A DNA stretch of 64,000 nucleotides from Psammoneis japonica (lineage: Eukaryota): NCBI GenBank assembly GCA_008632985.1, contig QPGO01000056.1:1-64000 (forward strand), in the 5' to 3' direction. This document shows positions 530 to 31,176 of this stretch, piece after piece; positions within the stretch are counted from its first letter, which is position 1; each line of letters opens with the position of its first letter. The notes under the pieces are model-generated. The model was not told the DNA's origin, searched no databases, and worked only from the letters and a program-made list of their open reading frames with translations. The translations under genes were made by a program, and so were the position numbers.

Positions 530-3500
530 TAAAAGGTGAGCCTGACGCGCTCTTGGAAAAAGACGAGCGCCATTGTACAACGGGGCCGGCTTGAGTGCCG
601 GCAGCTCCGAGCAACTGCCCAGAGAGTCAGAGACAAGGTGAACAAGGCCGTCCGGCAAACAACTCCAGGTGAAGATGAGACCTGGCAGCTCCGAGAGACA
701 GCACAAGAAGTTGTGTGCCTGTGCCAGCCCATTGGCGTTGGACAATTCCCGGTGCTTCTGCACATTGTGAGTTCGCAACAATTGAGTCAAGAGATGGAGC
801 GGAGCACACACAAGGCAGTCATTCCAGAGCTGAGGACCACTGCGAAGGTCCAGCCCAGCAGCCGTGTGAAATGTGAGAGGAGCAGCTCCGCATCGGTCAT
901 GGACATGCCAGCTCAGGGAATCTGCATGGAGCCAAGGAGGTCCAGAAGGGTGAGGAGCAGGGCAAATGCTGCAAAGGTTGCACCCAGCTTTGCGTTCATG
1001 GGGACCGAAGCGGTCCTTCATGCCAGGCGCAAAAAGGCTCTGAATGAAAGAGCGGTGTGCTGAAGGATGCACCCACAGAGCTGGCCATCATGAGGCACTC
1101 TTGGGCAATGATCCTTGAAAGGTGGGCAAGCTGTGACAGCGGCTGATTGGCCAAAGACAGAGCCCCTGAATGCTGGGTTGACGTGCACCGGAAATGGCTT
1201 GCATGCATCCGGGACAACTGCAGCCGCCGCGCCAGTGGAGCGGCCCTGGGGAATGAGTGGTTCCAGAGAGCAAGCAAGCAGGCCAGTGCACCACAGCCTT
1301 TGGTGCCCAGTGGCACTGGCTGCCTGCTGCCCTGGGGAGAAAGACCAGTCCTTTGTGAATGGCGCAGAGGGGGCAGGCGCGACGACAAACTGGTGGACTG
1401 GCTGTTGCACTACAATGGATCAGGGTGCAGCAAAGATGGGAGCTGTGGTGTGAGGTCGCTGCAAGAGGCCCACAACTAGCATGTCTGCAAATGGCGCTTG
1501 GTTGGTGGCCTGCGGGACATTCATTGTGCATCGCAGCGGCTGATGCTTGAGCCTTTGGGGGCTGGACCCAGGTGGCGGGTTGTGCATGCATTGGGATGCT
1601 TTGCGAGGCAAGTGCTCTGTTGTCCGAGCATTGTCATGGCATGCTGAGGGTTTTTGACTTGCCAGTGAGATTGCGTGTGGCCAGATGCGGCATGCTTGGC
1701 AGAGGTTGGATGTCATGAGGTGGTGGCTGACACCTGGGCTGCTGACAGTGGAACGGATCCAGCGGGGACAGGTGCAAAGCTGCTGCAAATGCTCGCTGCT
1801 GTGATGCCAACAAGTGGGCAGCAGCCTGAAACCATGTGAATTGACTCATGATGCCATCCCTGTCACTGTCATGGCCTCACCACAACTCGCAATGTTGCTG
1901 GGTGCAGAAGTTCCTGCTGTTTGAGCTTGCATCTCTTGCACTGTGATGAGCTGGCAAGGTGGGGCCAGTCTCTCCAGGCTTGCTGGCTTTGGAGAACAGT
2001 GAAGCAGGAGCGAGTTAACTGATTTGGTGGTGAAAGGGTTGAGACTGAAGCATCTGGAAGCCCAAAGCTTCCAAGTGGCCAGGGGGTGGTGGTGCCACAG
2101 GTCAAAGCAGAACTTGACATGCCTGGGACCCAAGCAGCATGCTGCAGGGGATGGACACCATGGAAGGCCTTGGACTCACAATCCAGGCAGGTGGAACATC
2201 AGTTGTTGTTGCTTTGCTGAGGATCCTGTTGCAACAAAGCTGAGAGGCCAGGTGCGGTCCAACATGACCAAGTCCAACAAGGCTGGAACAGAGGAGGCAG
2301 AGTCTGGAGAGTTGGAGCTTCCAAGTGATGCGGCAAATTGCAGTCAGGAATGAGATTGATGACAAAGTCAGAGGGATGGGCAACAACCGCAGCAAACCAT
2401 TCATGCAGCAGGTGATGAGAGGCCCGCACTTCATGGGAGGCAATGGCATTGGTGCTCATTTTGGAAAGGCTTGCCATGAACTGATCAAACATGACATCAG
2501 GCACCCAGATCTGTCCCACAGGGAGATCAAAACCTTTGCAGCTTGCTGGTCTTCAGACAGAGACACTGGGGTGGGAAGAGTCACCACTGTGCATTGAGCC
2601 AAGGCAGAGCAACTGCCCAACAAGGCACCCGCTGGTGCAAGGCAATGATGTCCATCAAGTTGGTGGGAGAGGTGATGGAGGGGACTGCAAGCCAGGACAT
2701 CATGCACAGCCCATTGAATGACCAAGCTGCTGATGAGAGGCCTGACAGCAGTTGATGGGTTCAGGGGACCATTTGGGTTTCTTTGAATTGTGCATGAAAC
2801 TCATTGCCATGGGACAAAACAGGTTTGGTGGTGTGGGAATGTGATTGGCTGAGGCTCAATGCAGGAGCCACTGACTGGGCCTCCGGTGGAGCCACTGCTG
2901 TTCCCTGCATGGCAGTGCTGAGACACGCAGTGATCATGATGACTGGATTGGAGCATGTGCAGGGGTTGCTGTTGTTCTGAGGTGGCTGGCAGACACAAGC
3001 CAACATGAGGGCCCTGTCAGAGACTTGAGCAGCTTGTGCTGCTTGACAGTTCTCCAGAGCATGGAGGCTCATGCCATCATCAGCTGGCAGAGCCCCAACT
3101 GGGAGGGCCATGGTGGTGGTGGCTAGACTGTCGGTGGCGGCCAAGAGGCCAGCAGCATGGCACTGTCATCAGAAAATGTGTCGGCGTGCAAGCCGCCGCA
3201 CTGCTTCAAGAGCCGGATGGACCATGCCGGGACAGGAAACTGTTGGGAAGGCCAGAACTGCTCACTCCAGAAGGAAGGAGCTTCTGCTGACAAAGTTGGC
3301 AACCAGCAACCTGCATCTGTGCTTTGCCAAGATGATGGCAGGAATGGGACAAAAGATGCTGAAGTGCTTGTTGAGGCAGCTGAGGAGCCACCATTGACAC
3401 CACGAGTTGTGAGAGGCATGGCACCAAGGAGCATGATGTGACAAAGACAAGTGCAAGATGCTGCAAGCAAAACTTGCTCTTGAACTCATCAACATGGCAG

Positions 3501-6500
3501 TGCAACTTTGGCAAAAGAAAGGAATGAGAGCTTGCTGCAGCTCGTGTGGTGCTCACAGGCTTGTGCACTGCTTCTGCATTGGTCATCTCCGATGCAGAAG
3601 CAGATTGCAAAAAGACAACCCCCCACTCAAACAGGGGGGGAGCACAGACCACCATCTCTCATTGGTGTCCAATCTGCACCAAACAATTTCAGACTGCAGT
3701 GTCGTGCACCCCTTTTTCTGACACATGGCAAGAAGGATTTTGTTGGTTTGAGAGCTGTTGCAACACAGGCTTTACTGATTGCAACCTTGTCACATCTGTC
3801 TCTCCCCACAACTTTGTTGTCAATGAAGTCTTCATCTCGTTTGACCTTTCAATGAAGCCACAGTCAACCAAAGAACAGGGTGGGGGCTGTGGCATGCTGC
3901 TCCAAGAACAAGCCCCAGCCAAGCCAAGTGCAAGAAAAGAGAGCTGCAAGCAAGAGCTGCAGTTTGGGCTGTTGAACATCAAAAACAAGTGAGACAAGAA
4001 TGCAAATGTTGTCAACAGGATTTGTGGCAAGCCAAGCACAACAGCTGGAGAACAAGCCAAAGTCCATGGGAAAAACTGTTGCACAGCTGGACTCTGTCTT
4101 TTAAGAGCCTTGTGTGAGCTGTGAGGCCAAATTTGAGCACTCTGATCTTGAAAGTGTGAAACTGACTCAATTGTGTGATGATGGCTCTGATCTTGAAAGT
4201 GTGAAACTGACTCAGCTTGCACTGAGAAGTGCTGTTGTTTTGATGGCGAATTCATTGCACCAAAGCACCATTGCTTGTTGAAGATTCAAGATTGTTTTTA
4301 CAAGATTGCCATGAAATTGGGGCAAAAAGCACAAAATCTAAAAATTCTTCATCTGACAGAAAAGAAGTGCTGTGTCATGTCTGCAGATCAAGGTGAGTGG
4401 TTGAAGGACAAAAGCAACTGGTGCTCAATCATTTGACATTGATGACCTTGAAATGAAAAGACTCAACTGGCACGGAGTCAATGGTGTCCCAACCAGAAAA
4501 TGACTGGGGCAACTCAAAATTCGGCATTTTTGTCTGTGTGAGTGAAGTGAGTTGTGTCAAGTTCTGTGGCCTTCAAAAGTTGTTGGATGCTGCAGTGCCA
4601 AGTGCCAACATTTTGCATGTGCACAAAGATTGCAAACTTGGTTGTTTTGAAAGTTGTCAACCCCAAACCCACCCCAACTCACCACAGCACCGGTGTCATC
4701 TCACCCATCTGTCTGTTGCCCAGTTGGGGCAGGCAGAGGGGAGACACACAGACAGATTCAAAGCACTGCAATGTGCTGGGTGCAACTGTCTGAGACATGC
4801 AGAATGGAGACCCAGACAATAAAAAATGGGTGACAGGGGAGACACAGATGGATTTGATGCATTGCAACATAAATGCAAGTGCCAGAGACATGCAGATTGG
4901 AGACCTGGACAGTCAAAAAATGGGTGACAGCCTGCATGTGCACAAAAACTCACAAGACTCTGATTCAAAAATTTACCATTTGTGCAGCAGCGTGCATTGC
5001 ATCACTTCAACAACACACAGTTGCACCCCTCTTGTCCCAGCAGTCTGCGCTGTTGATGCACAACATGTCAGAACCCCCCGCCACATCTGCCACTGGCATG
5101 TGAGGCTGCTGATCACTGCTGACAGCACACCACCAGTTTTTCAGAAAGATGGAATGTTGTTTGATGACTCACGTGCCATTTGTGGCACTGAGCTGTGGTG
5201 CATGGCAAAGAGATGCTGTGCTTGCATGTTGCTGTCAAGGGAATGAACCTGTTCAACAAGAATGGTGATTTGTGTTGGGTGCTGCTGTTGCAGCTGGCAT
5301 TGACAACTGTGGCGCCAACCCAGGACGAAAATCACATGCTGGCCACCCCAGCTGAAATTTGGGGTCACATTGGAGAAAAAGGGCTAGGTGCAGAGCCAAT
5401 GTTTGATCAAAAAAGCAGCCAAAAAATGTGGTTGCCTCTGCACCTTGTTCTGATCAGTGTGGCATGTTGGTTGCTCTGTCATGTGCAAAATGATTTTTTC
5501 AAAAGAAAAATAAAAACAACTCTTGTCATGTCAAACTTCAGGAGAAGAAACTCATTGTTGCATGAGGTCTTGTGCTTGATGTGACAGTTTGTGCACGCTG
5601 GTGGCTGGGCAGATGTGGGTGATGTGGTTGGACTGACAGGTGCAACATCTGAATCTTCCATTTGTTCTTTTGTGCTGAATTTTGCTGTCATGCTGCATTT
5701 GCACTTGGGTGCCAACCATTTCCATCTGGTCATTCTTCATGCCAGATCCATCCAAGCTCTTGCCATCCAGGCCACTGAGCAAGCATGAGCATGGCACCAA
5801 GATGAGCTCAAGCAAAGATGCAGAGCAAGCAACAAGCGTGTGATGTGTGGCTTTCTTTTGGATTTTCCAGGCCAGCTTTGTGTGCAAGCCTGCAGCGCAA
5901 ATGCACAACATTGACAGCTGCTCTTTTTTGCTGATGGCAAAGGAGTTGTTTCAATCTTGTTGTCATGAACAACCTTGTCACCTTCTTTGCAGCCACTTGA
6001 AGTCATGGGTCTTTTGATGTTTTGGATCATTTCTTGATTTTTGTGCGCAAGCACCCCACCACCCTTTTCTTGTTGTCCTGATCTCCAATGTGCAGACAGC
6101 GTGGAAAAAATGCAGTTGTGCACCACAGCAAACATGCAAACACACCTGGGATGATTGCAGCACAGGCAGGTCATTCCAACACGCATGGATTGTGAGATGT
6201 GGTAATGTGGATGAGTTGAGCGCTGAGCAGACAACAACCGGCAATGAAGTCGACAAAGGAGGAGATGTGGAGATTGAGCCAACAGACTCAACTTGCACAT
6301 GACAGCAACAACTGACACACAGAGAGTGGCATGTTTGTTTCTACCAAAAACAGACCCCAGATTGAAGCTCTGCAGCCAATGTTGCAACAGGGGCAATGGG
6401 CATGTCAGCATGCGGCATCACATTGATTGCAAAGCACCAACAGCAGCTTCTTTTTCACACAATGAATCAAACATGCCTTCAAGCCATCCACAAGCCAAGA

Positions 6501-6750
6501 AGAACAAAATTGAGACCAATGTTCTTGAGACCTGCCTCATTGTGGTGACAAGCAGCCTCAAGAACTCCAATGGCATCAACACTGACATCACGTCAAAAAA
6601 TGTCTTTGCAGAGAACCTTTGGCAAATCAAGTTGAAAGCTTTCACTCACAATGAGAAGATTGACACCAACATCCAAAGAGACGTTTTGCATTGTGTCTGT
6701 GTGCAAGTGCTCAAGAACCTTGAGAAAGACAGGATGCGACACATCTTTTA
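530..6750. other. CpG/TpA-depleted, TpG/CpA-rich degenerate repeat domain A
   Basis: TA and CG are very rare while TG/CA dominate. All six frames give Cys/His/Gln/Trp/Met-rich, nearly Tyr-free spurious ORFs. Contains short internal direct repeats (4140-4169/4185-4214; ~4735-4930). Boundaries approximate. Confidence 0.85.
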
Positions 6751-7122: not shown

Positions 7123-8396
7123 TTAGTCCCGAATAGAAGACGCCTCTGGGATTAATCCGTAATGTCGAAAGATTGCCGGATTGAGTGGTAGCTTTCCTCT
7201 GAGTTGAATTGAAATTCGAGGTTCATTGTCACGATAAAATACATGCGAGCACACCTCGGAAATCAAATGCAGATTGTACGCGGCTGACGTATCTCTTGCC
7301 ATTGCTCTTGAATAACAGTTGTGGATATTATTCAACATGCGCCTTAGCACACCTGTATGATCTAGTGGCTGCAAGAACTCATCTTGCCACTCGATCCCAA
7401 AGGATGCGACAATGTCGCGACACTCGTTGTCAGACAAGATTCGCCCGCCGTTAAACACGTCCACATAAGCTTCACCAGATGCAACACCAAGGACTACATG
7501 TCCTGGAAGGCCAATGATATCCACCTCAAACCCACACTTATCGAGAATAATCTTGTATAGCACTGCCAATGTCAATGGAATCCCCTTCCTTGAGCTCATG
7601 ACGTGACCAATTGAGGAGTTTCTCGCATCATAGTAGTTCTCCACATTTCCGGCAAATCCCATCTCGTCTACCAGAATCTTCTTGAGAATAAGAACCGCCT
7701 GCAATGTTTCATTGCCATGATCAGTACCGTTTAGTTGATCCTCGAATTTGCATCTGAGTTTCGCCAGATCTTGTCGAATCAATCCTCTCTGGCTTGCCGG
7801 TCGTCGAAAAGAAGCTCATCCCACGTCCATAAGCTTTCTGTCAGCAGTGAAGCTCCTTTCTCCAAAACATTCTCATCTTCTTCGACTTGACGTTGCATGA
7901 GCATGCTCAATGATTTCATCGCGGAATGGAAGTGCGATACATGCAAAAGATGAGTTGCCATACACCGAAGGAGAGGAGTGACATTACGTTGTTGTACAAT
8001 TTCAGAATTGATTCATTGTTTGTAGCGACTGCACGAAAATATCAACAGAGTCATCCACGAGGGTGTCTAGGTCCACTCCAATTCGATTGTTGAATAGCCG
8101 GTCGAGCCCATAGTCTTGTACCTGGCTAATCGCATCGGCTAGACTTATCAAACGACACCGCAACGTTGTTGCATCCGCGCAGTGACGTGTGCGGTAGTCG
8201 TGACGAGAAAAGGTAGGCGATTCATCTCTGCTTACCGACCAACGCTTCTTGTAGAGACGATCCCATACACAAACGTTGTTGTTGACAAGCTTGGGAGTCG
8301 ACAAGACGTTGCAGCGATTCGGCAGAGAGCACGGGGCGACGGAACAAACGAAATCACGTGCACGAATAATTCTGCGGGAAGTTCCTCCATTGACAT
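7123..8396 (-). CDS. F-box protein with C-terminal SirB1/transglutaminase-like domain (FBXO21-like); frameshifted in this assembly
   Basis: ATG at 8396 gives MSMEELPAELFVHVISFVPSPRALCRIAATSCRL (F-box). This continues after frameshifts through ...VWDRLYKKRW (8002..8442) and 7779..7961 into 7123..7782, which carries GFAGNVENYYDARNSSIGHVMSSRKGIPLTLAVLY...GLPGHVVL...YVDVFNGG...LRRMLNNI, typical of SirB1/Transglut_core2. Confidence 0.75.
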
Positions 8397-9749
8397 GGCC
8401 TTTTGGCTTTTTAGAAAAGTTAGAAACTAACGGTATGCTCAATTCTCAATCAACACACTCAAGTAGGGCAGTAATACGAAATAACGCCGCGATAAGTATG
8501 AACAAAAGTTCGTTGTGTTTGCAAGTCGTCGTGTTGTTCTCGTTGTTTGCATTGTGACCGCGAAACGGAGGAAACACAGACCGTGCAACTCAAAAACCCT
8601 CTGGTCTCTGGTGGAGATCAGAAGTGTGGGAAAAGAGGAGCTGCAGTGATGACACCAGCAGCAGACTCTTGACAGGCTCTTTCCCCGACCTTGCAACAGG
8701 CTGCAACTCTGAAGGAACTCCCATCAGGAGTTGAACATCATGTTGTCAGTGTGGAGCACACTGGCTGGGGCACACAGAGTGCTGGCTGCCTGAGCTTGCT
8801 GGTTGGTGGCCTGAATCTTTCCTGCCGCTGCCTGTTTGTGTCAACTCCTGGCTTTCTTGGATGCTGCATGTGGTGATGGTCTTGGCAGTTGAAGGTGTGG
8901 GGACCACTGGCTGTCACTTGCTTTGTGGTGGGCAAGCGGGTGCTGTGCGGGGTTTCAGCAGAGCTCTGCAAGAGGTGGATCTGTGGCTGCAACAAACTCC
9001 AGGATGGAACTGGCTTCTTTTTGTGCAGCTGGTGCTGCAACATGGACAATGAGTCTAGGATTAAGATTGTTGAAAACTGCACCCCCCCCCACCCAGCCAT
9101 CTTGTCACACTGTTGCTTTACATTTTGTGACTTGAGGCTGGAAGGAAACCAGGCATGTTTTTTCACAAGACACATTCCCAGCATTGTTGACCCCTGGCAA
9201 CAACCCAACCAAGGCTCTGGGGTTGATGCTCAATGCAGGGCATGCAGAACAAATGAGGGGATGCTTTGAAGAGCCAGAGCAGCAGCTCTGATAATGAGAA
9301 AGCCACCCAGCAAGCATGGGAGAAGCAGAGAAGGGCAGTGCTTCAAGCGTGGCAAACAAAGAATGTTGCCAAGCCATGGGGTTCCACAAAGGGCAGTGTG
9401 GGGACCAACAAGCAGAAAAAAGGACCAAAGAAGAAAGCATGCAAAATGGTGGGAAGAAGAAGCTCTTGAACAACAGAAGCTCCTCTGACAGCTCCATGCA
9501 GAGAAGGATGTGCGTGCAGGCATTGACATGGACCCACTGGTTCAAGAAGCCATGCACAGGAGGGATCAGTGATGATCCTCTTCACAGCCTTTGTTGGCAG
9601 CAAGTTGTTTCAAGCAAGGAATGGTCTGCAGACTGCATTGCTTGGATTTCAAACTTTGTTCTTACACCAATGTGAGCTGTGCCTGTGAAATGCTGACTGG
9701 CATTGATTCCTGACACTGTCCAGAACCATCTCTCCAAAGCACAATGCCT

Positions 9750-11390
9750 TTTGGGGGGCTCTAAGGACTTTGCGGGGTGCCACCATCATTGGCCTCAACA
9801 CATTGAACAGAGCCATTGATGACAAGTTCATTGTCAATCTGGACAACTTGGTGTTTTGTTGCACCATGACACCTGTTTCATTTGTTTCTTTCTCACGTGC
9901 ATCATGACCTTTCTGGGTGCCGATGTCTGTGAGCTCAAAAGTGGAGCGTCATTCCCACAGAGATTGGCCAGTGTGGAGCAGTGGGAGCCACCCATGTTTC
10001 ATCCTTCTTGCAAGAACTTGATGCATGCAGAGGCCAAGTGATGCAAAAATGGATTGCCACATGCCAAAGCTCCTGCTTTTTGCCATAAAAAAGAGCAACA
10101 CTTCTTGGATTCATCATGTCCACATTGTCGCACATCTGAGATCCACATGCTTCAGCTTGAGACAGGAAACAAAACTAAGATGTTTCAGCACCTTGGTTGG
10201 GGCCCAGTCAGATGCATTGCACCCAGTGAGATTGGCGAACTCAACTCATTGAAGATTGGAAAAGTTGCAGAAGACAATGAGGGGACAAGCAGGTTGACAC
10301 CAGCACATTTTTCTTTTTCTGACCAGCTGACCATTGGCACTCCAATTTCAAACCATTTTGTGCTGAGACTTGGACAAACTGGACCATCAGCAAATGTTTC
10401 ATGAGTCAAATCCTCAGGGGTGTTGTCAAACTTGAATGTCCCTGCCAAGCAAGTTTCCACCCATTCACATGAAAAGTTGAGTTTTGACAAATGTTCTTGA
10501 GGCAGGCAAATCAGGAATGAAAGCAAGATTGAAAATGTTCTTCTTGCAGTCTGCACTTTCATTCTCATCCCACCAGGCTGTGTTGCCATCATTGGGCAAG
10601 AACCAGTCGGGAGCACAGCACTCGAATTCTTCCCAGCTGTTCACTTGTCCCCACAATGGGTGCAGCCACAACAACTGGAGACACCACTGCAACCTCCCAA
10701 GCCACCATGCAATTTGGGTGCTTTGAGCAACTGACAGCATGGCAAAAGATCATCACAGTTCATGGCAAACCTGCTTGAGCTGCCGCTGATTGTGGGCTGG
10801 GCACATTTGTGCTCTTGGAAGAGCAGAGCAGTGCCTGGCGGGGCAGCTTTGTTGCCATTTCAACAACTGCAAATCTCCATTCCTTTGACATGTTGTTGGT
10901 TTGGACAAAATTGTTGTCCTCTTGGATTTGAGCATCATGGGAGAGTCAATGGCCACAGGTTTTGCAATGCAAATGAGGCATGAGTGTTTTGGAAAAGTTG
11001 TTGATTGGTTTGTGCAATTGGGGGGTTTGTGCAAAATTACATCCAACATGATCTGTTTTGTTTGTCAGAAAACAAACATTCTTTCTGTGGGTTCTGTTGC
11101 ATCTTGTCCCAAAATTGCAGGTTTTGCAATGCAGATGAGGCATGAGTGTTTTGACAAAGCTTTTGCATGCTTTGTGCAACTTGGAGATCAATGATGACAG
11201 TCAACAGGATGTGCTTCATTTGGCGTTTGTGTTGTCCTGACTTTCTAGGTCAGAAAACAAACCCTCTTTCTGGGTTCAGTCGTGTGTCTCATCCTGAAAA
11301 TTGCCCAGGCAAGGATTCCAAAATTGCACATAATGCCACTCCAATGCTGGCTGGCAGAAGTCAAAATGTCATGGTCTCTTGTGCTTGAGG
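9750..11390 (-). pseudogene. Hypermutated duplicate of the Yippee-like/LRR-like gene at 17051-18313, including its upstream region
   Basis: Colinear with ~17050-18570, e.g. 10401 atgagtcaaatcctcaggggtgttgtcaaacttgaatgtc vs 17756 atgaatcaaatcctcaggggtgttatcaaactcgaatgtc. The 5' segment gaggcatgagtgtttt is duplicated (~10975 and ~11137). Confidence 0.9.
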
Positions 11391-12363
11391 GTGCTCATCC
11401 TCCAGAAATGCCATGGCATTTGAACAAGACAGTTTGAAGTGTTTGTTTTTGAATGCAAAATTGGTTCATGTTCACACCCGATTGCACATGAAAACAAGAA
11501 CATCAGTCACCATGATCAAAGCATGATGGTGCTGATGGCAGCAATCTTGACATTTCTCCAAAATGCAGTGGCCATCCATCCTCAAACATTTGATGTGCAT
11601 GTGACCTTTGATGCTTGACAAACACAATGATCAAATGAGAGCTTGAAGATGGACTGCCTCCATCACAGACTTGTGGCTTGATGTTTTCACCATGGCAAAG
11701 CACAGTGAAATTCAAGAAATGTGATGCAAATCACAAGCTTTTCATTTGGCCAAATTTGAGCTAAAAAAGTGGCAAATGATCCCCCGTGACATTGCTGTGA
11801 TTTCTAAAAAAAATTGATGATGTTTGCAGTGACCCAAAGGATGCCTCCTCTTGCAAAGCATGAAGATGTTGCAACAAAACAAGAGTCATGGCCTGCATTG
11901 AGCATTGACAATGAGCATTGACAATGCACCACATGAGCACTGATGATGAGGGGGGACCTTGGCATCAGCGAGTCTTGACTTGTGTGGGGCCGCTCCCCAA
12001 CCAGGGCTGCCATGGTTCTCTTGCTTGGCTTGAAGTCAACCTTGCTCTCTTCTTGATCCTCTTCTTTGTTGCCACCACTGACCACACCCAGCACTTCTTC
12101 AGCTGAGAGAGGGTCATCAAAACATTTCTTTGGGGTCAACTTGAGCTTCTGCACAGAGTGCTTTGAACTCATGCTGTGCTCCAGGGCACCACTCTGGAGC
12201 ATGGCTGCATTGGTTGTTCCTCCAGTCAATGGGGCAGTTCAATGAAGCTTTTTTTGCCTCCAGCACAAGATGAGACACTCACTTTCAGCCAGTCTCACAT
12301 CTTGCTTGTTCCCCTTCCATTGGTGGTTTGGCACCCTTTTGTGTCTTTGCCAGCACTGTGGGC

Positions 12364-13420
12364 TCAGCAGACTGCACCCTCTCCCCGGGCATGCAGCAGG
12401 AGCTCAGGAGACAAGAAATTTGTGAATTTCCTCTTTGTCATTGTTCCGCCTCTGCGGTGGTGTGTGAATTTTGATGCCTTTTGTTCTTGATCCTGTGAGC
12501 CCCACCTTTGCAGTCCTGTTGCTGTCTCTTGGTTTCTTGCTGGTGAAATCTTTGGCCACTCTTGAGATGTGCAGCCTGAGCAATGGTTGTCCACTTCACT
12601 TGATGTTGAGTCTGTGTTGAGTGCAATTTTGTTGGATTCAGTGGAAGCACTCTGCACCATGCATTCAGAATTGGATGTCTGTGGTGCAACCTGGACTGAA
12701 GGAGAAAGTTTGAAAGAGGCTGAGTGACTGGTGCATTGCTTCACATGCGCCACATCACCCAGCCATTTCCAACGTGCATCCTCTTTGGAGGATGCCACTT
12801 CTGGCTGATTGTGTGAGCTTCTGCTGCACTCCTTGTTGAGTGTGCTGGAAGTGTGGGCTGGCCGGCACCGGCCGGTGTTGCTGGGCAAAGGTGTGACAGC
12901 ACTTAAAATCAGGTTTGGGATTTTTTTGTGTTGAGAGCAATTTTGGTTTTGTGTGAGAGAGTGTGGCTTGATTGGCTGCCATGGCCATTGCCATCACTCT
13001 TGCCAGACTCCAAGGTTGCTGTTTCTCTTTCACAAGCCTGAGCACCTTGCATGGTTTTTGTTCAGTTCTTCTGTTTTAAAGTTGGTTGGACATTGTTTGC
13101 CATTCCCACTGAGGCCATTGAGCACTGTGCACTGCCTCCAGTTGTTGTCTGACATGTCTTGCTTGTTGCTTGAAGACAGCCCCAATGCATTGCACAGCTT
13201 TCCATCTTGTCTGCTTTGGGACATGCAATGGATTTCCATGTGGGGGGTCATTGCATGCACGTGGAATGCAGCAAGGCAGATGAACAGGACCACGTGAGCA
13301 TTGCAAATCATGATTTCACTGAATGCATTTGCTGTTTCACAGCAGAGGAGCAAGCAGATCACTGGGGTTGTTGCAATGATGTCATGCATCATGCTGTGTG
13401 CCACACAAATTGCAGTGCAC
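12364..13420 (-). mobile_element. Possible degenerate Copia-type LTR retrotransposon gag/protease remnant
   Basis: LNTDSTSSEVDNHCSGCTS (~12565-12620) resembles the (F)DTDSxxIGIDNRCSxCIS protease motif I recall from diatom Copia elements. The rest is too decayed to assign. Confidence 0.35.
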
Positions 13421-15479
13421 AAGCCAGCATGAGCACAAGGTCATCATGGCAAAGACCTTTGTCTTGCCCATGATCCTGCTGAGTGCATGCAACACTGATG
13501 GGCATGCTCACAAAGAGCCATTCAGACTCCTCCTCTGAGGGCCCTTGGCTGGCAATGGCAGACACACCACAGGCTTGGACTGGCTTGAGATGCTTGCCTG
13601 CTTGCTTCTTGTTGTTGTCTCCTTTTCTGGGCCTGCACTGTCATCTCTGACACTTCTCAGGGGTGCTGATGCACTGCTTGCCATTTGCTTGTGCAATTTC
13701 CCCACTGGTGTCCTTGTGGTGTGCCAATGGCGGGTCTTCTTGGACTTGTTTCATGTGCAAGCTTTGGAAAGCATCCTGTGCTTCATGCGTTGAAAGAGTG
13801 TTCTGGCTTTTCATCATCTTCCTTGGATCCCTCTTGCCTCTGGTGTTTCTTGGGGGTCCTTCTTGACCTCCTGCTCCTTCTTGCCCTTCTTGATCATCTG
13901 AGGTTTCTTGAGGGCCGTGAGCAAGCTCAGCTTTCAGGGAAGGGATCTTCTCCTTGTTGCTCTTGCTCAGGGCACTCCTCTTCTTCTTCTGAAGGAGATT
14001 CTTGCACTTGTCATTTGCCATGTTCATGAGTTGTGGTGCTGGCACATTCACTGCCATTGTCAGGCTCTTCCTGTGTGCAAGCAGCAACATGCTTGATGGA
14101 GACCTTGTTGGACACAGAGGAGCCAAGTGACCCTTGAACAAATTTGTTGGCAAGTCTTCAGTGGTCTCACCTCATGAGCTGAACACCACCAAGAGGATCA
14201 AGGCACATTTGCTGAACTTTGCAGTGACATGCCCAGTCTTTGGCAAGAACACATCAAGTTTTGCAAGATGGATCTGGTTGTGTGGCATCTGTGCTGAGAT
14301 GCTCTCTTGAAAATGGCCACCTTCAATGACGGGTTTCTAGAGGCATGGCCATCAACCTCATGCTCTTTCTCCCAGGTCCTGCTTGTTTTGTCTTTTGCCT
14401 CCTTAGAGAGTGTCACCATGGCTGCCTTGTGCACCATTCTTGTGTCTTGTGCAGTGCCATTCTGGCCACTGATGTGTGTGTCTCCTCTCTGGTGCTCCAA
14501 CATCTCCAACTCCATCTGCCCACAATCTTCTGGGACATTCTTGAAACCCCCACCACAATGAATGTCTGCTGCTGCTGCTGCTGCTGCTGTGCTGGGTCAC
14601 ATTTGGGATCACGGGCACCCCTCCTTCTCCAGCCCAGCCACGTTCAATGGCTCTGTTTTCCACCACCTCCAGGAGTTGGGATGGGTCCACGCCGGTCCAC
14701 AGAAGAGCACAGCTGAAAGACTCCCGTTCCATGAGCCCATCACTTGGTTTCACTCCAGTGCTGGATCTGTGGCCAACTGCTCTTTCATGTGCTTGAGCTG
14801 GCACATCAGCATGAGTGGTGCTGTGCCTTTGCTCCAAGCTGGCGCTGCTTGTGGAGGAAGTGCTCAACGTCATCTTTGATGCAGAGGAAGAGTGCTCCTG
14901 CAACAACGAACGTCAAAGACAAGTCAAAGAATCAGATCCCAGGGTGGCCAACAGCACCAGGTGCTGGAGTGACTCCAAGGGATTGGTTGTTGCCAAAGTC
15001 ACTCCAAGCAGATTTTGGGAGAAAAGTGTGAAGTGCACAAGAGACACACAAAGAGCTGTGCTTTGGCGGGCGAGAGGGGGCAGCGCAGCCACAGCAGCAT
15101 CTGACCAGGATCTGAGCAGCAGAGGAACACACATGCTCCCCAGCAGCAATGTGGCACCACTCCTTGCAGTGATTGCCTAAGATGCCTGCACCACTTCTTG
15201 CATTGGCTGGGAGCTTTCTCATCTCTTTCAGCGCAGATTGGACAGGAGCTTAATCTCCGGGTTCTCCATAGATGCGAGCTCCATCTCGAGGTCTGGTTCA
15301 ACCAACCAGAGATCTTTGCTTGCAGTTTGCAGGGGGCGAGATTGAAGATGCGTGAGCATTCGTTCAGAATTCAGAATCAAGAGACAAGAGGTGCACTGCA
15401 AGAGTTCGACTCAACGACTTGCTCATTGCTTCTCCACCTTGCTTCTCAACGACTTCCTTTGTGTTTTGAGCCGATCATC

Positions 15480-16238
15480 ATGCCTTCCAGCAGCAGCAGC
15501 AACAATAATAATCCAGCATCTGGTCGTCCTCGCTCCCCCACCGCAGTCGCGTCGACTGTTCATCCATCCGGGTGCACCTGTGGATGCTTGCACGTGGGAT
15601 TTCCGAAGGCAATCTACAGGAACTACAGGGGTGTCGAAACGTTCACGGGTGTCCTCATGCTGGACAGTGAAATGACTCTTTGGAAGTTGAACGACCCCCA
15701 TTACGATTTTGAAGAAGGAGCCACCCTGGCGAGTTTGGCGGGAACAGGACACTTGATGGGACATGACGAGTTCATCATGGAAATGGCATTGTATGATCTC
15801 AAGGATGGGACTCCCTCCTCCACCGTTCCGATCAAGAAGAATATCCCCTTTGTCGATTTCAGTGACAAGCCAGACGATTTCTTGTTCAAAGAGCGCGAGT
15901 TGGAGATCTTTGACGTCAAGTTCCCCCATGGAACTCTCGGGAGAAATTGGGTGATTCCAGAAATTCGCGCAGATGACACTGTCAAAGTTATGGTGAGCAA
16001 GCACATTCACATGGCAGGGCAAAATGCCAATGAACGTTTGTGGGTAAATGTAATTGGGGTGACGAACACGATGCTTGTCGTCGGGTCAATGTCGAATTCT
16101 ATTGAATCGCCTCTCATTCGGGCCACCCAATTCCCCGATGACCTTTCGGAAGATCCGAAATTCAAGGTGAAAGAGGGAGACTTGGTGGCATTTCCAGTGA
16201 CATGCGTCTTGGGGGTGGAGCACGGGGAGAACTGGTAG
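15480..16238 (+). CDS. Hypothetical protein with C-terminal DUF2314/YegJ-like motif
   Basis: Part of ORF 15198..16238; probable start MPSSSSSNNNN at 15480. C-terminus TVKVMV...NERLWVNVIG...VVGSMSNS...KEGDLVAFP matches the pattern of DUF2314-like proteins. Normal codon composition. Confidence 0.6.
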   Translation: MPSSSSSNNNNPASGRPRSPTAVASTVHPSGCTCGCLHVGFPKAIYRNYRGVETFTGVLMLDSEMTLWKLNDPHYDFEEGATLASLAGTGHLMGHDEFIMEMALYDLKDGTPSSTVPIKKNIPFVDFSDKPDDFLFKERELEIFDVKFPHGTLGRNWVIPEIRADDTVKVMVSKHIHMAGQNANERLWVNVIGVTNTMLVVGSMSNSIESPLIRATQFPDDLSEDPKFKVKEGDLVAFPVTCVLGVEHGENW

Positions 16239-17050
16239 AGTTGATCCTTCTTGAATTGGCAAAGGGAAACGTTGGGCAATCATTCAAGGGCCGCTATCGC
16301 ACGAGCGGAGGGGGGGGGTAATCGAGAATCGGGGATGGTGATCTTACAAACTAAATAAAATGTAATTCTATGCGATGTCTATAAGTCTGCAGTGTCCGTT
16401 TTGTGATTTAGCAGCAGGAGGTTTAAAATTCTGAGTGCGGTGAGGGATCGGATGTGCCTTGTGTCCGCTCATGATTTGAAGCTGACGGCATTCCTACTAG
16501 CACAATCAAGGCACCCCGGTGACGTAACTTCCAAAATAGAAGTAGAGAGGAATTTCGTATCATATGTAGCTGTTCCACTAACATCTTCGTTTGTCCAAGG
16601 GATCCAATCTGTTTCTTCATGGTAGGATGATGCCCGGCCCATTTGAAACCAATCTTCTCCAACCGCTGGGCCGCTTGACAGCCATGTCGGAATTGGGTAT
16701 TCTGTGTCCAAAAGTTGCGAGCTCTGTGTACAGAGAGTCTTCGATGTTTTGAAAACTAGCATTCAAACACTACTTTGTGTCTCCATTTGTATCGCTCGCT
16801 GAACTCGCATCAGTGGATAGTCGGCATCAGTACATAGAGCCGAATAATCATAACAGATCGCTGTCGTCTTGGCAAAAGGAGAGATTGAAAAGTCTAAGAA
16901 CATGACCGTTAGAGAGATCCCCAGGCATAATGAAGCATGATTATAGCGTTATTTAGTGTCTCGCACTTCTTTCTGGTCATGGGGAGGAGTCTAGTCAGAA
17001 TTGGCAAAAGGGTGCTGGAGAAGTTGAATATTTGCTACACAACTGGCGCT

Positions 17051-18313
17051 CTAGGGCCTAAGAGCCCTCTTAGCTACGACTAGACCCCTGGTAAGGTAGC
17101 TGAACAATTCGCACCAAAACTGCCCGGCCCTACTTGCGACTGGCCTCGACTCATTGAATAGAGCTATTGATGATGAGTTCATTATCGATCTGGACAACTC
17201 GCGTTTTGTCACAGTATGACGCCTGTTTCGTTCGTTTCTTTCCGTATGCACCCTAACCTTTCTGGGTGCCATGTCCATGAGCTCAAAAATGGAAAAGTCG
17301 TTCCAGTAGAGATTGGCCAGCGTGGAACAGTAGGGGCCGTCCATATTTCGGCCTTCTTGGAAGAACTCGACACATGCAGAGGCCGAGTGAACGCGAAAAT
17401 GAATTGTCACGTGCCGGAGATCCTGCTTTTCACCAAAAAAGACCAACAGTTCTTGGATCCGTTCCGTCCATGGTAACACACGTCCGAGATCCATGCGCTT
17501 CAGCTTGGGACAGGACAACAAAACTGAGATGTTTCAGCACCTTGGTTGGGTCCCAGTCGGATGTGTTGTATCCAGTGAGATTAGTGAACTCAACTCGTTG
17601 AAGATCAGGAAAGCAGTAAAAGATAATAGGGATGAGTAGGGCCCTAGGTCGATACCAGTATCTTCTTCTTTTTCTGCCCAGTCGGCCGTTGGCATTCCAA
17701 TTTCAAGCCATTTTGTGCTACGACTCGGGCAAATTGGAAGGTCAGCAAATATCTCATGAATCAAATCCTCAGGGGTGTTATCAAACTCGAATGTCCCTGC
17801 CAAGCAAGTTTCCACCCAGTCACGGGAAAAGTTGAGTTTTGACAAATGTTGCGGCAAATCAGGAATGGAGGCGAGATTGATGATGTTTTTCTTATCTGCA
17901 CTGCCACCAGGCCGTGTTGTTATCATAAGGTAAGAACCAATCGGGAGTACAGCGCTCATATTCTTCCCAACCGATCACTTGTCCACAATGGGCGCAGCCA
18001 CGATAACCGGACGCATCACTGCAACCTCCTACTCTAGGCTCCCACGTGATGTGGGTGCTGTGCGCAATTGACCGCATGGCAAAAGATCATCGCGGTTCAC
18101 GGCAAACCTACTCGAGCTACCGCTGATCGTGGACTGGGCGTATTTGTGCTGTTGGAAGAGCAGAACAGTGCCTGACGGGGCAGCTTTGCCGCCATCTCGA
18201 CAAGTAAGAATCTCGATTCCTTTGTTGTTGGTTTGGATTAAATCGTGATCCTCTCGGATTTGGACGTCGCGAGAGAGACGATGGCCGCAGGTTCTGCAAT
18301 ATAAATGAGGCAT
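17051..18313 (-). CDS. Yippee/Mis18-like Zn-binding domain fused to an LRR-like C-terminal region; frameshifted in this assembly
   Basis: MPHLYCRTCGHRLS...GCAHCGQVIGWEEY gives two CxxC plus the GW-x-x-Y motif. It is followed by IINLASIPDLPQHLSKLNFS...LQRVEFTNL...CPKLKRMDL...LRHVTI (LRR-like). Stitched from ORFs 18029..18361, 17892..18077, 17534..17959 and 17051..17521. Confidence 0.55.
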
Positions 18314-19052
18314 GAGTGTTTTGGTATAGTTTTTGTTTGAGAGATTAAAACAAAATATCAATCAACATGATCCGTTTTGTTATTCAGAAAACAAACGCTC
18401 TTTCTGCGGGTTCAGTCGCATCTCGTCCCGAAAATTGCCCAAACAGTGTTCCAACATCGCTCCATGGTTTTCCACTTGCCCCACCGCACCAACTTTGATT
18501 GGCGGTTTTCTGTAAAATCGTACGTGATGCTGGCTGGTAAAATTCGAAATGTCATGGTCATATGCTTGACATTGCGGTGATTTCTAAAAGTGAATGACAT
18601 GATGTTTGATGTTTGCAATGAGCAATGAGCGATAACGACTCTAAAAGAGACTTACTCTCGCTTCTCGCTCAAGATAGCATAGGGCCCTACCGGTACCTGG
18701 TACCTGGTATCAGTAGATCTTGATTTATTTTGCGGGACCCGCTCGCCAACCGGGACTGCGAAATATTCGCACGATCAACACGTGCTGACGTATAACATTG
18801 GTAACTCATCAAACCGGAATAAAAATTATAACCAATGAGGTAACGTGGAAGCTGGTATACTTCAACGCACGTAGGATCAATACCATGTCTTTTGTAGCTG
18901 ATCGCGAGGAAAGGTTGGCGTCGGAACATTTTTGAGTCACGCTTCCAACTCTCTTCACAAAAATGCAACGACCGAAGCAGCATCATCATCTTCTGTCGTC
19001 GCGACCATTGTTGTCAACTATTTCAACTTCTTCTGTAAAAGTTTCATAAATC

Positions 19053-19565
19053 ATGAGTGTCACTGAAGATTCACATTCAAACGGAGAAACCACCCTAGGC
19101 CCAATGCCTCCTGAAACGACGAAAGCCCAGTCCGATTCTTCTGACGAGAACGACAAGGGCAATGCGCCTGCCAGAGGCACTCCACAAAACATTCGAGTCA
19201 TTTTTACGGCCCTGTACGGAGACTGCAACAAGCAGTCAGATTCACCCATTGAAAGATCAAAGCTGAGTCGAGCCAAGTCACTTCCCAATGCACTTGGTGG
19301 TCCTAAGAAGCGTTCGAGAAGCAGCGAGCGGCAAAATAATACGCTCCGCAAACGCACCAACCTACGGTCCGACTGCTTCAGCGCAGACAGAAGCGGCTTG
19401 CCACCGTTGATTCATCCCAAATCAGAAAAGACTCGTACAAGACCTAGCAGTCTAGCTGTCCAACACGAAAACTCGGTCAATGTTGGCAAAGATGAAGTTC
19501 CTGAACTCGAGAGCGTTGAAAACGGAGACGACGAATTGTTTGGTCTTGCGTTTGTCGAAGAATAA
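19053..19565 (+). CDS. Hypothetical low-complexity protein (170 aa)
   Basis: Clean ATG-to-TAA ORF in a gene island with ordinary composition; no recognisable domain. Confidence 0.55.
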   Translation: MSVTEDSHSNGETTLGPMPPETTKAQSDSSDENDKGNAPARGTPQNIRVIFTALYGDCNKQSDSPIERSKLSRAKSLPNALGGPKKRSRSSERQNNTLRKRTNLRSDCFSADRSGLPPLIHPKSEKTRTRPSSLAVQHENSVNVGKDEVPELESVENGDDELFGLAFVEE

Positions 19566-19943: not shown

Positions 19944-22900
19944 CTATAGTGTGAGTCCGGCTTTCGAAAACATTTTCTCAAGACTCGCCAAGAGTTTGGG
20001 ATCACTCTGTGCCCCACTCTGGAGAATGAGCCGCACCTGGTTGGCGTGCGGCGACGATAAGATCCCTGAGATACGTTGCACAAAAAACAGCGTCGGATCG
20101 GCGATATCGGCAAAGGGGTCATGCGCACGTTTCTTGGCAAATTGCAAGCTAGAAAAGGTAGCGTCGTATCCAATGTCATCCACGTCAACGCCTAGAATGT
20201 CGTCATTGTCACGATCGGTCTCAACGGCGGTGGTGGGAGACGCGAGCAGTGTCACAACAATTTTGAGTGTTTCGGCCCAAACCTGCTGGCCATTTTCTTC
20301 GGCCAAGAGACGCTCGGGTGCGTCGCAAAGAAGCTTGGTCAAACCAACCACTTGCACCTTGGCATCCAAGCGCGAAGGAAGATCCTCGGTGAAACGGGGC
20401 AGCCACTTGTGTACAAGGACGTTCAAAGCAAGTTTATCCTGAAGCGCATTGAACTTGTCGAAAAACTCGTTCGGTCCAAACTTGCCTACGAAAAAGGCAA
20501 AATACTGCGTCGCCAAACGGAGATAGCGCTTCTGGTTTTGTTGCAGCAAGCGCGCCGCAATCAACTTGAACACCTCTGACATTTGGGGCTGAAGATTCTC
20601 GTACGGATAATATTCCGTCGCGGATGTGAGCAAGGCGTACGCACTGATTTCGTTGGCCTTGCTGGCGTTGAGCTTTTGAAAAATGCCGAGAACCGGCTCC
20701 AAATATTCCACCAAGTCAGTAGCGCTCTTTTGCAGATATGCCGACAAGAGACGAACCATAGGAGGAACGTTGCCGCCTTTGTGGTCCCACATGTCAGGAC
20801 TCAAGAGCGGCGTAAACAATTCTGTGTAGGCATCTCCAAGTCCAGCCGGACGGTACTCTAGGATCTGCGCAAGCAACTGAAAGACATACGGAGTCAACTC
20901 AGCGACATCCATCTTAAGAACGGTAAAAAGGTGAGTAAACAAGAGCGCTTCAAATGATGCCGTCATGTTGGGATCGGCCGAACAGACGGTTCGGATGAGT
21001 ACCGCAATGGATTCAAACATGTAATGATTGAACTGCGGATTGCGAGGATTCTTTGCCACCCGCTCCAAAGCCGCGGTGAGCCTTTCCAGAACAGTTTGCG
21101 TAATCGGTACAACGTTTTGTTTGGAAACACTGAGGGACCGCATCACACACTTCATGGCGTAGGCGTTCTCGTTGAGCTTGACATTGTCGATAATGCCAAA
21201 GAGAGCGGTGAAGAGCGGCGTGAGGAAAGGCTGAAGATCGGTGGCACCAAACTTGTCCGTGCCGTCTTGGTTCTTGGTGATCAGAATCCTCTCAACCGTA
21301 TAGGCCGCAAAGGTGTGAACCACAATGCTGGGCGAACCCAAGTGCGAGATCAAGAACGGCATCAAGGCGGTTAGCTGCGCCGTTGTAAACTGGTTGCGAA
21401 AGGTGCTGACAAACTTGAGGCACATTGCCTTGACCATGGGACGGGCGGCATGGTTGCTGTCCTGTAGTTCCGGGAGGATATGCGCAGAGAAGAACTCCCC
21501 CACATTGACTTGTTCGTTTACGGACGAAACGCCGCGGTTACTGCTCTCGGCTTCAATGGCAATGCACATCATGATTTGAATCTGTTTGAACGACACGATA
21601 ACGTAAGGTTAGAAAAAGTGCCATACAAAGAGACAATGGAATAACAAGGCACACAGACTGTCGCTTTTGACAGTACAATACTTACAGCCACATCCTTGGA
21701 TTTCCACTGGTTGACCGGATCCGCCGCATACGCGTTCAGCATGGCCCCGACATGCTGAGAACAAATGGCGGTGGTTTCAGCCTTGTGGTGCCTGCACATG
21801 CTTCGAAGCAAATCCTGACTGCACCAACGTCGAGAGTCACTGACCGCTCCTTCAATATCCAATGAAATGAATTCTGCGGGATCGTCCTCAAAGCGCTCCT
21901 CATCTACCTCACGAATCGCCAGATTGGGAATGACAATGCTGGTAATGATTTTCTCGAGTGTGATTTGTTCGACAATGCCTTGTTCGGGTCCGTCTTGATT
22001 CTTGAATAGGTCCTTGTGCATTAGCTTTTGCATGAGCGAACTCAAGAATCGAATAGAAATGGCCGCAAGAGCGTCATGCTTGGGCTTGGAAGACAATGCA
22101 ATCAAGAGTTTCCAAACGAGATCGATAAAGTTCGGGTCATGCCCAACCTGGATATAGTTTGCGATGAATACTTCTTCGTCGAGATCCGCGTGGTGCTTGA
22201 GGTTCTCAATAATGGCGGTTTGGAGTTTATCAACGGGACTGGGCTCGTCATCTTCGTCGTCGTCCACGAGAAGTGGATTCTTGTATTGCAAGAATACGGC
22301 AAAACCCGTCATCCACTCTTTGATGTGGTCCTCAAAGTATTCGGGAAGGTCCTGATATACCAAGGAGTAGTAAATCCGAGCAATAGAGTGCAATATGGAA
22401 AACCGAATCGTCAGCTGCTCTGGATTGTTCGCCAATCCCGCCACAGCTTGTCCCGTCGTCTGAAATAAAGCCAAGATTGGTTCTTGGACGCGTTCCAAAG
22501 AATAGATAAGGACCCTGTAAAGCTCTTCACTCCGCAGCACGTAACGGGAGCGCTTGAAAATCGAGTTCATCGTAATCAGCACGCCATCCACAACGGCGGG
22601 GTTGGGATCGTTGAACCTGCCCACCAAGTCCGCCAAGAGATTGTCCCAGTTTTGAGGAAAATCCACAGCGGCAATCAAACTAATCGCTTCAGAGCACTGT
22701 ACTCTGATTTGAGGCGAAACCGTACACATGAGGTTCACCAGGTGGGTCTTGATTTCAGTGCGGTGTTCCGGCGGGATCTGAATTCCGTCCGACGTGTCCT
22801 GAAGAGCATAGTATGGAAACAAATACATGTAAGAATACGACATAAGTCGATGTTATTGATCAAATTCTGCAGAGTCTTACCTCCCGGTTGACGTCCCATC

Positions 22901-24165: not shown

Positions 24166-24361
24166 CACGCCGAAACGTGACGAAAGGATCGGATCACAAT
24201 GGCGTTCTTCATGTTTTGAAACTCGCAAGACTACAAGTACGGTATGGAATGGATGGCACAACGCACGCCGAAACGTGACGAAAGGATCGGATCACAATGG
24301 CGTTCTTCATGTTTTGAAACTCGCAAGACTACAAGTACGGTATGGAATGGATGGCACAACG
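24166..24361. repeat. Perfect 98-bp tandem duplication (2 copies)
   Basis: cacgccgaaacgtgacgaaagg...gatggcacaacg at 24166-24263 and 24264-24361. CG and TA are fully retained. Confidence 0.9.
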
Positions 24362-30086: not shown

Positions 30087-31176
30087 TCAACTGTTTCGTC
30101 CCTTGCGACCAGTCTTGAGTCTTGATGGAAGAAAGGCTGCCATGGACGGGGCCTTGGGTTCACTTTTTGTCATCGGACTGGATCCGCTAAACCAATAGCC
30201 AAACGAAGGGTAGAACCGATTGCACAGGCCGCGCATTAGAGCCATGACATTGAATCTTCCCATCAAACGTCTCGGGAAGAAATGGAGCACTGCGTCAACC
30301 GGGAGAGCCGCCACACAAATAATAGCTGTTACCGCCAAGCCTAGAACACACACGATGGCTACCACAAAAAAGACTAGAACATTCTTGATCATCAAAACAA
30401 GACTGGGTGCCAAAATGTACTTGAAACGAAACATGAAGCTTGTTGAGAAAACATCAATTTCGTACTTTCGTTTGGCAATTCCTTTCAAAATGTCGCAAAT
30501 GCTGTCCCGCGTCAGGCCATCGAGAGGATTAGCCTTTCGCGCGAGCACCCAATAAAGATTCTTCCAACGCTTGGGAAAATCCACTACAGCAATAGACACA
30601 ATGGCCTCGGATATCTCAGCTTGGACTGGAGGAGGAGCTCTAAAAAGGAGTTCCACTATGTTCGCCTTGATGAACTCGCGGTCGTCTGGTGGAATCACAA
30701 TACCATCCGATTTGTCCTTAAATGATTCGAGAAAGCACGAGGCGTTACAATTAACGCCATAATGATATTTTCAGTTCAAGCTACTTTGTATCAACAACAT
30801 TGTCTTACCTCGCGGTTTTCATCCCATGCAACCCGGACAATACATTTGAAAGACTCGCTGCGAGTTTACGCTCAGCAGCTTCGTGCGAGTTTGCAACAAG
30901 TCAAAGAGGTTTCTGGTGAAACGTGGGCACTTTTGTACCTTTGAGTATCATTTTTAAAAAGTAAGAGACAGGAAACGAATGTTAGAAGTAATCCAGCAAT
31001 GCGATGATTCGTACGAAAAGGCCGTTGTATCGGTCTCGTTGCTCATTCACTTACGTGCCAATGCCGGCTGCGTCGCTCCAACACAAGCACACTCACCAAG
31101 TCGACATTCACATCGGATAATATCGTGTTGTTGCTGTTTGTCCGGGTTGGCCAGTGCTGATCTTCTGCGACGCCAT
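30087..31176 (-). CDS. Truncated CSE1 N-terminal paralog 3 (close duplicate of paralog 2; 1-nt frameshifts in exons 1-2, pseudogene or assembly error)
   Basis: MASQKISTGQP... start. WDENRE|gtaag intron retained. Last exon 30087..30716 reads IPPDDREFIKANIV...DFPKRW plus the hydrophobic VFFVVAIVCVLGLAVTAIICVAALP. Confidence 0.7.

Follow-up and report, generated by a model that had tools for sequence, protein, structure and literature searches.

The first 64,000 nucleotides (nt) of contig QPGO01000056.1 of the diatom Psammoneis japonica (assembly GCA_008632985.1), hereafter the window, hold two copies of a sequence of 1.3 kilobases (kb) that differ strongly in their content of the dinucleotides TA and CG. 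One of them, the inside copy (9790-11118; 1329 nt), contains 3 TA, 9 CG, 147 TG and 156 CA and is located within a domain (8590-15230) that is nearly devoid of TA and CG. The other, the outside copy (17141-18438; 1298 nt), is located ~1.9 kb beyond the edge of that domain and contains 43 TA, 69 CG, 99 TG and 96 CA, a dinucleotide composition equal to that of normal sequence elsewhere in the window (copies and domains are given without strand). The domain, the second of five such stretches in the window, measures ~6.6 kb, has edges that are sharp to ~100 nt and retains 18 TA and 47 CG in 6541 nt (8690-15230). It is flanked by a transglutaminase-like gene (7123-7815, minus strand) and by an open reading frame (ORF) that continues from ~15480; no terminal repeats that would mark it as one inserted element were found. 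As one copy resides in a mutated domain and the other escaped, the spectrum of the mutational process can be read directly from the pair.

Alignment of the two copies with MAFFT (9790-11118 versus 17141-18438) yielded 1267 aligned columns with 81.1% identity, 183 transitions and 56 transversions. None of the 41 TA sites of the outside copy is kept inside: 17 read CA, 14 TG, 4 TT, 4 AA, 1 CG and 1 AG. From the 66 CG sites three are kept and 63 lost, with near-symmetric main outcomes (30 CA versus 28 TG) and five others, so that 31 TA and 58 CG of the outside copy are TG or CA inside (89 context-specific changes). The aligned columns of the inside copy contain 2 TA and 8 CG, and the reverse change, TA or CG inside against TG or CA outside, occurs at just four sites (4/94, binomial p = 3e-22). 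The bases in TA or CG context represent 220 of the 1267 sites, yet they account for 96 of the 183 transitions. The background divergence of the pair amounts to 8.3% transitions and 4.0% transversions (~12%) and, together with the indels, identifies the copies as real, old paralogs. An initial annotation had proposed such a natural before/after pair on the basis of a manual alignment of 10141-10495 with 17489-17850, claiming that all alignable TA sites had become TG or CA and that CG sites had changed likewise. Within that subrange this holds for 11 of 12 TA sites (the twelfth, beside an indel, reads AG) and for 9 of 10 CG sites, the quoted example substitutions are all present, and the one TA reported to be exclusive to the inside copy is found at 10176. 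Over all 1267 columns the effect is stronger still, and the context bias that was expected there is evident from the transition counts given above. The pair is the only one of its kind in the window, as a self-BLAST of the 64 kb recovered no third copy.

A second pair of paralogs served as a control. Both its members (26032-27503 and 30091-31553; 78.8% identity) lie in normal sequence and they retain TA at 28 of 53 or 28 of 48 sites and CG at 50 of 90 or 50 of 81 sites, depending on the copy taken as reference, the retention being symmetric (53-62%). The difference in retention between the control and the inside/outside pair is highly significant (Fisher p 1e-9 to 3e-14). ORFs within the control pair are similar to the N-terminal portion of a Cse1/exportin gene located at 19944-22852.

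Besides the domain described above (domain 2), four others are nearly without TA and CG. Domain 1 spans 1480-6740, and on its left side TA is gone from ~990 while CG thins near 1800-1900. Domain 3 (39060-40500) includes a gap of undetermined bases (39174-39436) and a tandem repeat of 339 nt with 95% identity. Domain 4 covers 47900-49850, and domain 5 (53190-64000) extends past the end of the window. In the tandem repeat of domain 3 (39549-40228) two of the 12 mismatches are TG/CA flips. Taken over the domain cores (23,445 nt), the observed/expected ratios (o/e) are 0.05 for TA, 0.18 for CG, 1.76 for TG and 1.86 for CA, versus 0.52, 1.00, 1.17 and 1.17, respectively, in normal sequence (31,853 nt). 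The remaining twelve dinucleotides and the G+C content (~48% in both) are nearly equal between domains and normal sequence. The loss of TA raises the G+C content and the loss of CG lowers it, which is why G+C is unchanged and only the dinucleotides betray the domains. The edges are sharp (~100 nt) and adjoin ordinary genes, encoding a transglutaminase-like protein, a Cse1/CAS exportin, a ClpB-like protein, V-ATPase subunit a, a DUF3179 protein and an enzyme with an amine-oxidase fold.

To polarize the changes an outgroup was sought. For the pair itself none was recovered by self-BLAST of the window, nor among the contigs of sequencing run X1, which show no further copy at a likeness of at least 80% and single-contig depth over both copies (X1 and X2 are the runs, from one sample, whose contigs were compared with the window). 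A 141-residue ORF piece gave no hits with phmmer against 1.84 billion representatives or in a word-indexed search of longer proteins. Among metagenome contigs, an exact 24-nt pattern common to both copies found no match, and a protein-pattern scan produced 256 pattern matches of which none was confirmed. The polarity therefore rests on three other tests.

The first of these concerns a Ty3/gypsy pol sequence (60524-63159, minus strand) in domain 5, identified by the Pfam domains for reverse transcriptase, RNase H and integrase, for which homologous proteins provide an outgroup. The search gave 953 homologs with an E value of at most 1e-20; 80 of the 120 that were listed entered the alignment with the pol of the window. 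Tyr is shared by at least 60% of the 80 homologs in 28 columns, and in these the window has Tyr twice, Cys 13 times and His seven times; at 35 Arg columns it has Arg 14 times, Cys five, Gln four, His three and Trp two times. Other consensus residues are kept in 335 of 507 columns. Tyr makes up 0-0.43% of the pol ORFs compared to 2.87-5.35% (median 3.97%) in the 120 listed homologs. The replacements are exactly those that result from TAY to TGY/CAY and from CGN to TGN/CAN. The second test makes use of a tandem duplication at the right end of the inside copy, in which ~190 nt (I1, 10953-11122) are followed by a second copy (I2, 11113-11335). Relative to the outside copy, I1 and I2 disagree at three CG sites, where one reads TG and the other CA; one CG persists in I2, and two TA sites and one CG site are converted alike in both. 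These outcomes imply that CG was the ancestral state and that conversions took place both before and after the tandem duplication. The third test is based on adjacent TG/CA flips, which make up 38 of 131 mismatches between copies that both lie in domains, versus 8 of 398 when both lie outside (p = 5e-18). A flip of this kind requires two changes, except when both states derive from a TA or CG precursor. All three tests agree that the change went from TA/CG to TG/CA, thus from the outside-like to the inside state, which is the direction assumed in the initial annotation.

The same annotation had taken the pair for copies of a host gene and concluded that the mutator hits captured host genes and not only transposable elements (TEs). 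The part of this claim that concerns non-TE sequence stands, considering that domain 2 is mostly single-copy from 9200 onward (see below) and has no Pfam match there. The host-gene label, on the other hand, is not supported, because homologs are lacking in the searches made, the copies are frameshifted relative to each other and a codon-position bias is absent. More explicitly, the minus strand of the outside copy holds four ORF pieces in two frames, and the copies differ, in either direction, by indels whose lengths are not divisible by three. A Pfam search with eight ORF pieces, those of the outside copy among them, returned nothing above noise; in the Atlas the 141-residue piece had no usable hit and a 94-residue piece scored at most 0.87. 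Tabulated by codon position, the differences outside TA/CG context are evenly spread over the three positions (9/9/7, 4/5/7, 15/14/16 and 21/23/21). As judged from the sequences, neither copy shows constraint at the protein level, and the duplicated unit is best described as an orphan sequence of 1.3 kb that evolves without visible protein constraint. A Yippee-like reading of the sequence, with a CxxC...CxxC arrangement, was also considered; it was supported by no search and was dropped. A 10-nt palindrome, TAGGGCCCTA, occurs twice in the window (17637-17646 and 18680-18689), in each case within the outside copy or at its edge. At least two occurrences were obtained in 5 of 100 shuffles, and at the position that corresponds to 17637 the inside copy is without 6 nt of the palindrome.

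Domain 2 was compared with the X1 contigs over 9200-15230 at a likeness threshold of 80%. Except for two short repeats, the depth over this part is at the level of a single contig (58-74), and it is thus mostly single-copy at that threshold, below which old repeats that were mutated independently would fall. The untouched state of the partner copy and the mostly single-copy nature of the domain together imply targeting by position or chromatin state and not by homology. The two short repeats (11400-11800 and 12800-12930) are of high copy number, with dozens of X1 contigs and a summed depth of up to ~2700 versus ~60. The copies in the window differ from most other copies by paired TG/CA flips (11616-7, 11655-6, 11696-7, 12812-3 and 12859-60). 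As judged by eye, the loose-end consensus of the copies of the 11.4-11.8 kb repeat elsewhere in the genome appears to keep TA and CG at sites that read TG/CA in the in-domain copy of the window, an observation that we do not count as evidence.

The outcomes along the inside copy, 42 TG versus 48 CA, are balanced for both sources (TG:CA 14:17 from TA and 28:31 from CG), and their order follows chance, with 53 runs against 45.8 +/- 4.7 expected; the runs test thus revealed no clusters of strand-coordinated editing in this copy. The absence of runs and the balance of TG and CA imply that the events were independent and affected both strands, as opposed to clustered edits of one strand. With respect to timing, the inside copy has seven TA/CG sites that are not shared with the outside copy, where by a rough estimate ~24 would be expected from the background divergence had the purge stopped at the duplication. 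Together with the outcome for the tandem duplicate this points to a long-running or recent purge and not to a single early burst. The sites that escaped are informative about sequence context. Among the 78 TA sites that remain in the domains, 21 are within TTAA and the rest include CTAG, CTAA/TTAG and GTAA/TTAC, whereas ATAT, GTAC, ATAC/GTAT and ATAG/CTAT are completely absent (27 expected from the pool of TG/CA sites). This pattern suggests that TA may be lost fastest at V-T-A-Y. The residual CG sites show a milder flank bias, with TCGA most depleted and GCGC least.

The data thus establish the spectrum and the direction of the changes, their restriction to domains, their strand symmetry and persistence, and their independence of copy number and homology. 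The explanation that we favor, and to which we assign a probability of roughly 60% as a whole, holds that both sequences go back, as old copies, to a single orphan sequence of 1.3 kb in a diatom chromosome, and that one of them came under a context-specific mutational process that would convert essentially every TpA and CpG of a domain to TpG or CpA. The domains would represent silenced chromatin, one of them holding the Ty3/gypsy element, and two base-deaminating activities would be aimed at them. The first would turn A into inosine at TpA, fastest at V-T-A-Y, by means of a DNA-acting deaminase like ADAT/TadA, as has been proposed for the alga Bigelowiella natans; the second would be the deamination of 5-methylcytosine at methylated CpG.

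The B. natans system is described in a recent preprint (bioRxiv 10.64898/2026.01.13.699255). In mutation-accumulation lines 231 of 302 de novo mutations fell within two virus-derived regions, in some lines only; all but one of these were A:T-to-G:C, all of the latter on TpA and leading to TpG or CpA, and there was no rise in G/C-to-A/T changes. The de novo rate was ~1e-7 to 1e-6 per site per generation, 124 clusters of TpA-depleted windows rich in CpA and TpG were found, and an ADAT2-like candidate was proposed (same preprint). The term 'CpG' does not occur in the available text (same preprint). Among the matches listed in our literature search, hypermutation of TpA to TpG/CpA was reported in that preprint only, and no paper was found that combines diatoms, repeat-induced point mutation (RIP) and dinucleotide bias in TEs.

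The two systems have several features in common. Both show conversion of TpA to TpG/CpA on both strands (here at 31 of 41 TA sites and, as Cys or His, at 20 of 28 conserved Tyr), both are confined to kb-scale regions beside normal sequence (here five domains with edges of ~100 nt), in both the target is single-copy and not repeat-induced, and both display long-term TpA depletion with an excess of CpA and TpG. Furthermore, the depleted coding sequences of B. natans are enriched in reverse-transcriptase and DDE domains, and domain 5 contains a Ty3/gypsy pol. There are differences too. B. natans is a chlorarachniophyte (rhizarian) and P. japonica a diatom (stramenopile); here CpG is erased as well, in the same domains and to the same products (63 of 66 CG lost, 58 to TG/CA); and the depletion is near saturation (TA o/e 0.05), whereas the available text gives a Rho of 0.45 for the region of B. 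natans that derives from a nucleocytoplasmic large DNA virus. Finally, the targets in B. natans are virus-derived and de novo events were seen, while here the process is known from its footprint in the sequence and one Ty3/gypsy pol was identified.

Several points weigh against the explanation given above. At some edges the loss of TA outreaches that of CG by several hundred nt (~990 versus 1800; ~38800 versus 39060). The rule for the residual context is based on 78 sites. Both deaminations and the silenced state of the chromatin are steps that we infer. In the three-way comparison of I1, I2 and the outside copy both TA sites are concordant and hence uninformative, and with no outgroup for the pair, the polarity of its TA sites is drawn by analogy with the pol test and from composition. 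X1 may be the source of the window's own data, in which case its agreement with the window is not independent support. Given that B. natans shows no rise in G/C-to-A/T changes, the loss of CpG observed here is either a separate process or a real difference between the two systems.

The last point bears on whether one activity could generate both signatures, be it a DNA deaminase with dual specificity for A and C or an oxidase of 5-methylpyrimidines like TET/JBP. The oxidase version, which we derived from general chemical considerations, would have the enzyme act on the T in TpA and on the 5-methylcytosine in CpG and yield products that mispair; the base that is hit would then be the 5' pyrimidine of a self-complementary pyrimidine-purine step. 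The losses of TA and CG indeed coincide within ~100 nt at about five of the nine edges, both are near saturation, and both yield equal proportions of TG and CA. In addition, ADAT2 enzymes with deaminase activity on A as well as C in DNA are cited in the work on B. natans (bioRxiv 10.64898/2026.01.13.699255). At the other edges, however, TA loss extends past CG loss: the flanks 990-1900 and 38800-39060 are free of TA with CG still frequent, and the stretch 1001-2000 counts 2 TA but 30 CG. This uncoupling fits two processes, which it favors without proving them. Moreover, the residual levels differ (o/e 0.05 for TA versus 0.18 for CG), as do the flank preferences (strong for V-TA-Y, mild for T-CG-A), and the spectrum in Bigelowiella, where the de novo hits are on TpA only, would by analogy also point to two processes. 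We therefore consider a single activity unlikely.

An original compositional difference would make a mutational process superfluous: the domains could be foreign or virus-derived DNA that was under selection against CpG and UpA, or the outside copy could have gained TA and CG. Joint suppression of CpG and UpA with an excess of UpG and CpA is known for RNA viruses and cytoplasmic RNAs (PMC3829696). The depletion observed here is far more extreme, conserved Tyr and Arg residues of the pol were destroyed, and the divergence of the pair shows no codon-position bias. Furthermore, the TG/CA flips between copies in domains presuppose a TA or CG intermediate, and the composition of the outside copy is exactly that of the background, all of which makes this view very improbable.

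It is similarly hard to believe that the domains are an artefact of sequencing or assembly, in which heavily modified bases of a heterochromatic domain were miscalled as TG or CA. Modified motifs do cause systematic miscalls in long reads, and the sequencing platform of the runs is not on record. Nevertheless, the independently built X1 contigs (word depth ~60) match the window along both copies as well as over the edge of the domain. One of them spans 12888-19100 with three differing letters and another spans 9365-11570 with five, and on the basis of these bridging contigs the region of the pair is not an assembly chimera. In addition, the outcomes form a mix of TG and CA that varies from site to site, the erasure of the gypsy element is partial in that two conserved Tyr were kept, and the indels and the 12% background divergence are those of real, old paralogs. 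The eight single-contig sites at which the window and X1 differ show no TpA pattern, save for a TA-to-TG change at 16911, outside the domains. The contigs of X2 include one of 1567 nt that covers 17120-18685, and thus the outside copy, exactly, and others that cover 15371-16272 and the sequence from 18942 onward. The X2 contigs, none of which lies over the inside copy, come from a run recorded merely as 'DNA?', and the missing cover carries no weight. Considering the contig at 17120-18685 and the other gene-sized pieces, we suspect that X2 may be a transcript-like data set. Contigs of both runs have an extra G behind 17448 (depth 58.4/58.4 in X1 and 296.7/296.7 in X2) that is not in the window. 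The ORF of 147 amino acids at 17051-17494 (minus strand) of the outside copy is therefore probably the artefact of a 1-nt assembly error or of a strain difference.

Other mutagenic systems share certain traits with the one described here. RIP in Neurospora and other fungi depends on the RID/DNMT4 enzyme and occurs before meiosis. Like the process in the domains it introduces heritable transitions in a specific sequence context, by which selfish DNA is ruined and a dinucleotide footprint remains. A fungal-type RIP, in which duplicates are recognized by homology and suffer C-to-T changes by an enzyme like RID/DNMT4, would be in line with the involvement of a duplicate and with the presence in diatoms of a DNMT4 that is related to fungal RID and of unknown function (PMC9998398), yet it has next to no probability, because RIP generates TpA, chiefly from CpA, and is triggered by duplication, with mutations in both copies, whereas here TpA is destroyed (o/e 0.05, with CA at 1.86), 31 of the 89 context-specific changes (around a third) are A:T-to-G:C, one of the two duplicates was spared and has background composition, and 9200-15230 of domain 2 is mostly single-copy at a likeness of at least 80%.

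The decay of CpG in methylated DNA, as in vertebrates, plants and methylated TEs, likewise turns CG into TG or CA on both strands, restricted to regions that are presumably methylated, but it leaves TpA untouched. The TEs of diatoms are CpG-methylated via DNMT5a (PMC9998398). Hyper-editing by APOBEC3 (C-to-U in single-stranded DNA) or ADAR (A-to-I in double-stranded RNA) also comprises deamination-type transitions directed against invading sequences, and the 5' U preference of ADAR resembles TpA (bioRxiv 10.64898/2026.01.13.699255). These enzymes, however, target a single strand of a replication intermediate, which results in strand-coordinated clusters, whereas here strand runs are lacking and resident chromosomal DNA, including single-copy sequence, is affected.

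Hypermutation from A:T to G:C at TpA in resident chromosomal DNA is a very recent finding from a single rhizarian alga. New in the present case is that the same footprint is found at saturation in a diatom, is coupled to the erasure of CpG and is confined to sharply bounded domains beside ordinary genes, and the process may thus be widespread among marine protists. The diatoms offer a second lineage in which to find the enzyme, with some species being genetically tractable. The before/after pair, the putative V-T-A-Y preference, the lack of strand bias and the lack of a homology requirement constitute a natural spectrum that any mechanism should reproduce. In a wider and quite tentative view, against which we would set the odds, diatoms might possess an active genome-defence mutator that is targeted to chromatin domains, i.e. 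one enzyme system that acts on duplex DNA, needs no duplication and erases the self-complementary TpA and CpG of silenced DNA. Such a system could share its ancestry with the TpA hypermutation seen in Bigelowiella or have arisen convergently, and would be an old counterpart of fungal RIP across the stramenopiles, alveolates and Rhizaria.

The domains also affect annotation, as they keep a normal G+C content and lack TAA and TAG stops. With TA erased only TGA is left as a stop codon, which results in many long and overlapping ORFs that gene finders could mistake for genes. The domains contain 96 overlapping ORFs of at least 100 amino acids on both strands, and 94 of these are without a Pfam match. 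At the protein level Tyr and Arg are changed to Cys, His, Gln and Trp, and these residue changes hide transposons, and perhaps viral insertions, from homology searches. An ORF in domain 5 beside a gap of undetermined bases (57966-58727, minus strand) contains a piece of a MACPF (perforin-like) domain (Pfam E value 1.5e-5) and might exemplify a gene of cellular type within a domain.

Protein similarity also places the window in a diatom. The V-ATPase subunit a ORF is 75-81% identical to the relatives listed, and those named by organism are all diatoms (Seminavis robusta, Cylindrotheca, Nitzschia, Bacillariaceae, Trieres, Epithemia and Stephanodiscus). The long intronless ORFs of the window are consistent with this origin. 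Finally, the normal sequence contains a perfect tandem duplication of 98 nt (24166-24361; 100% identity).

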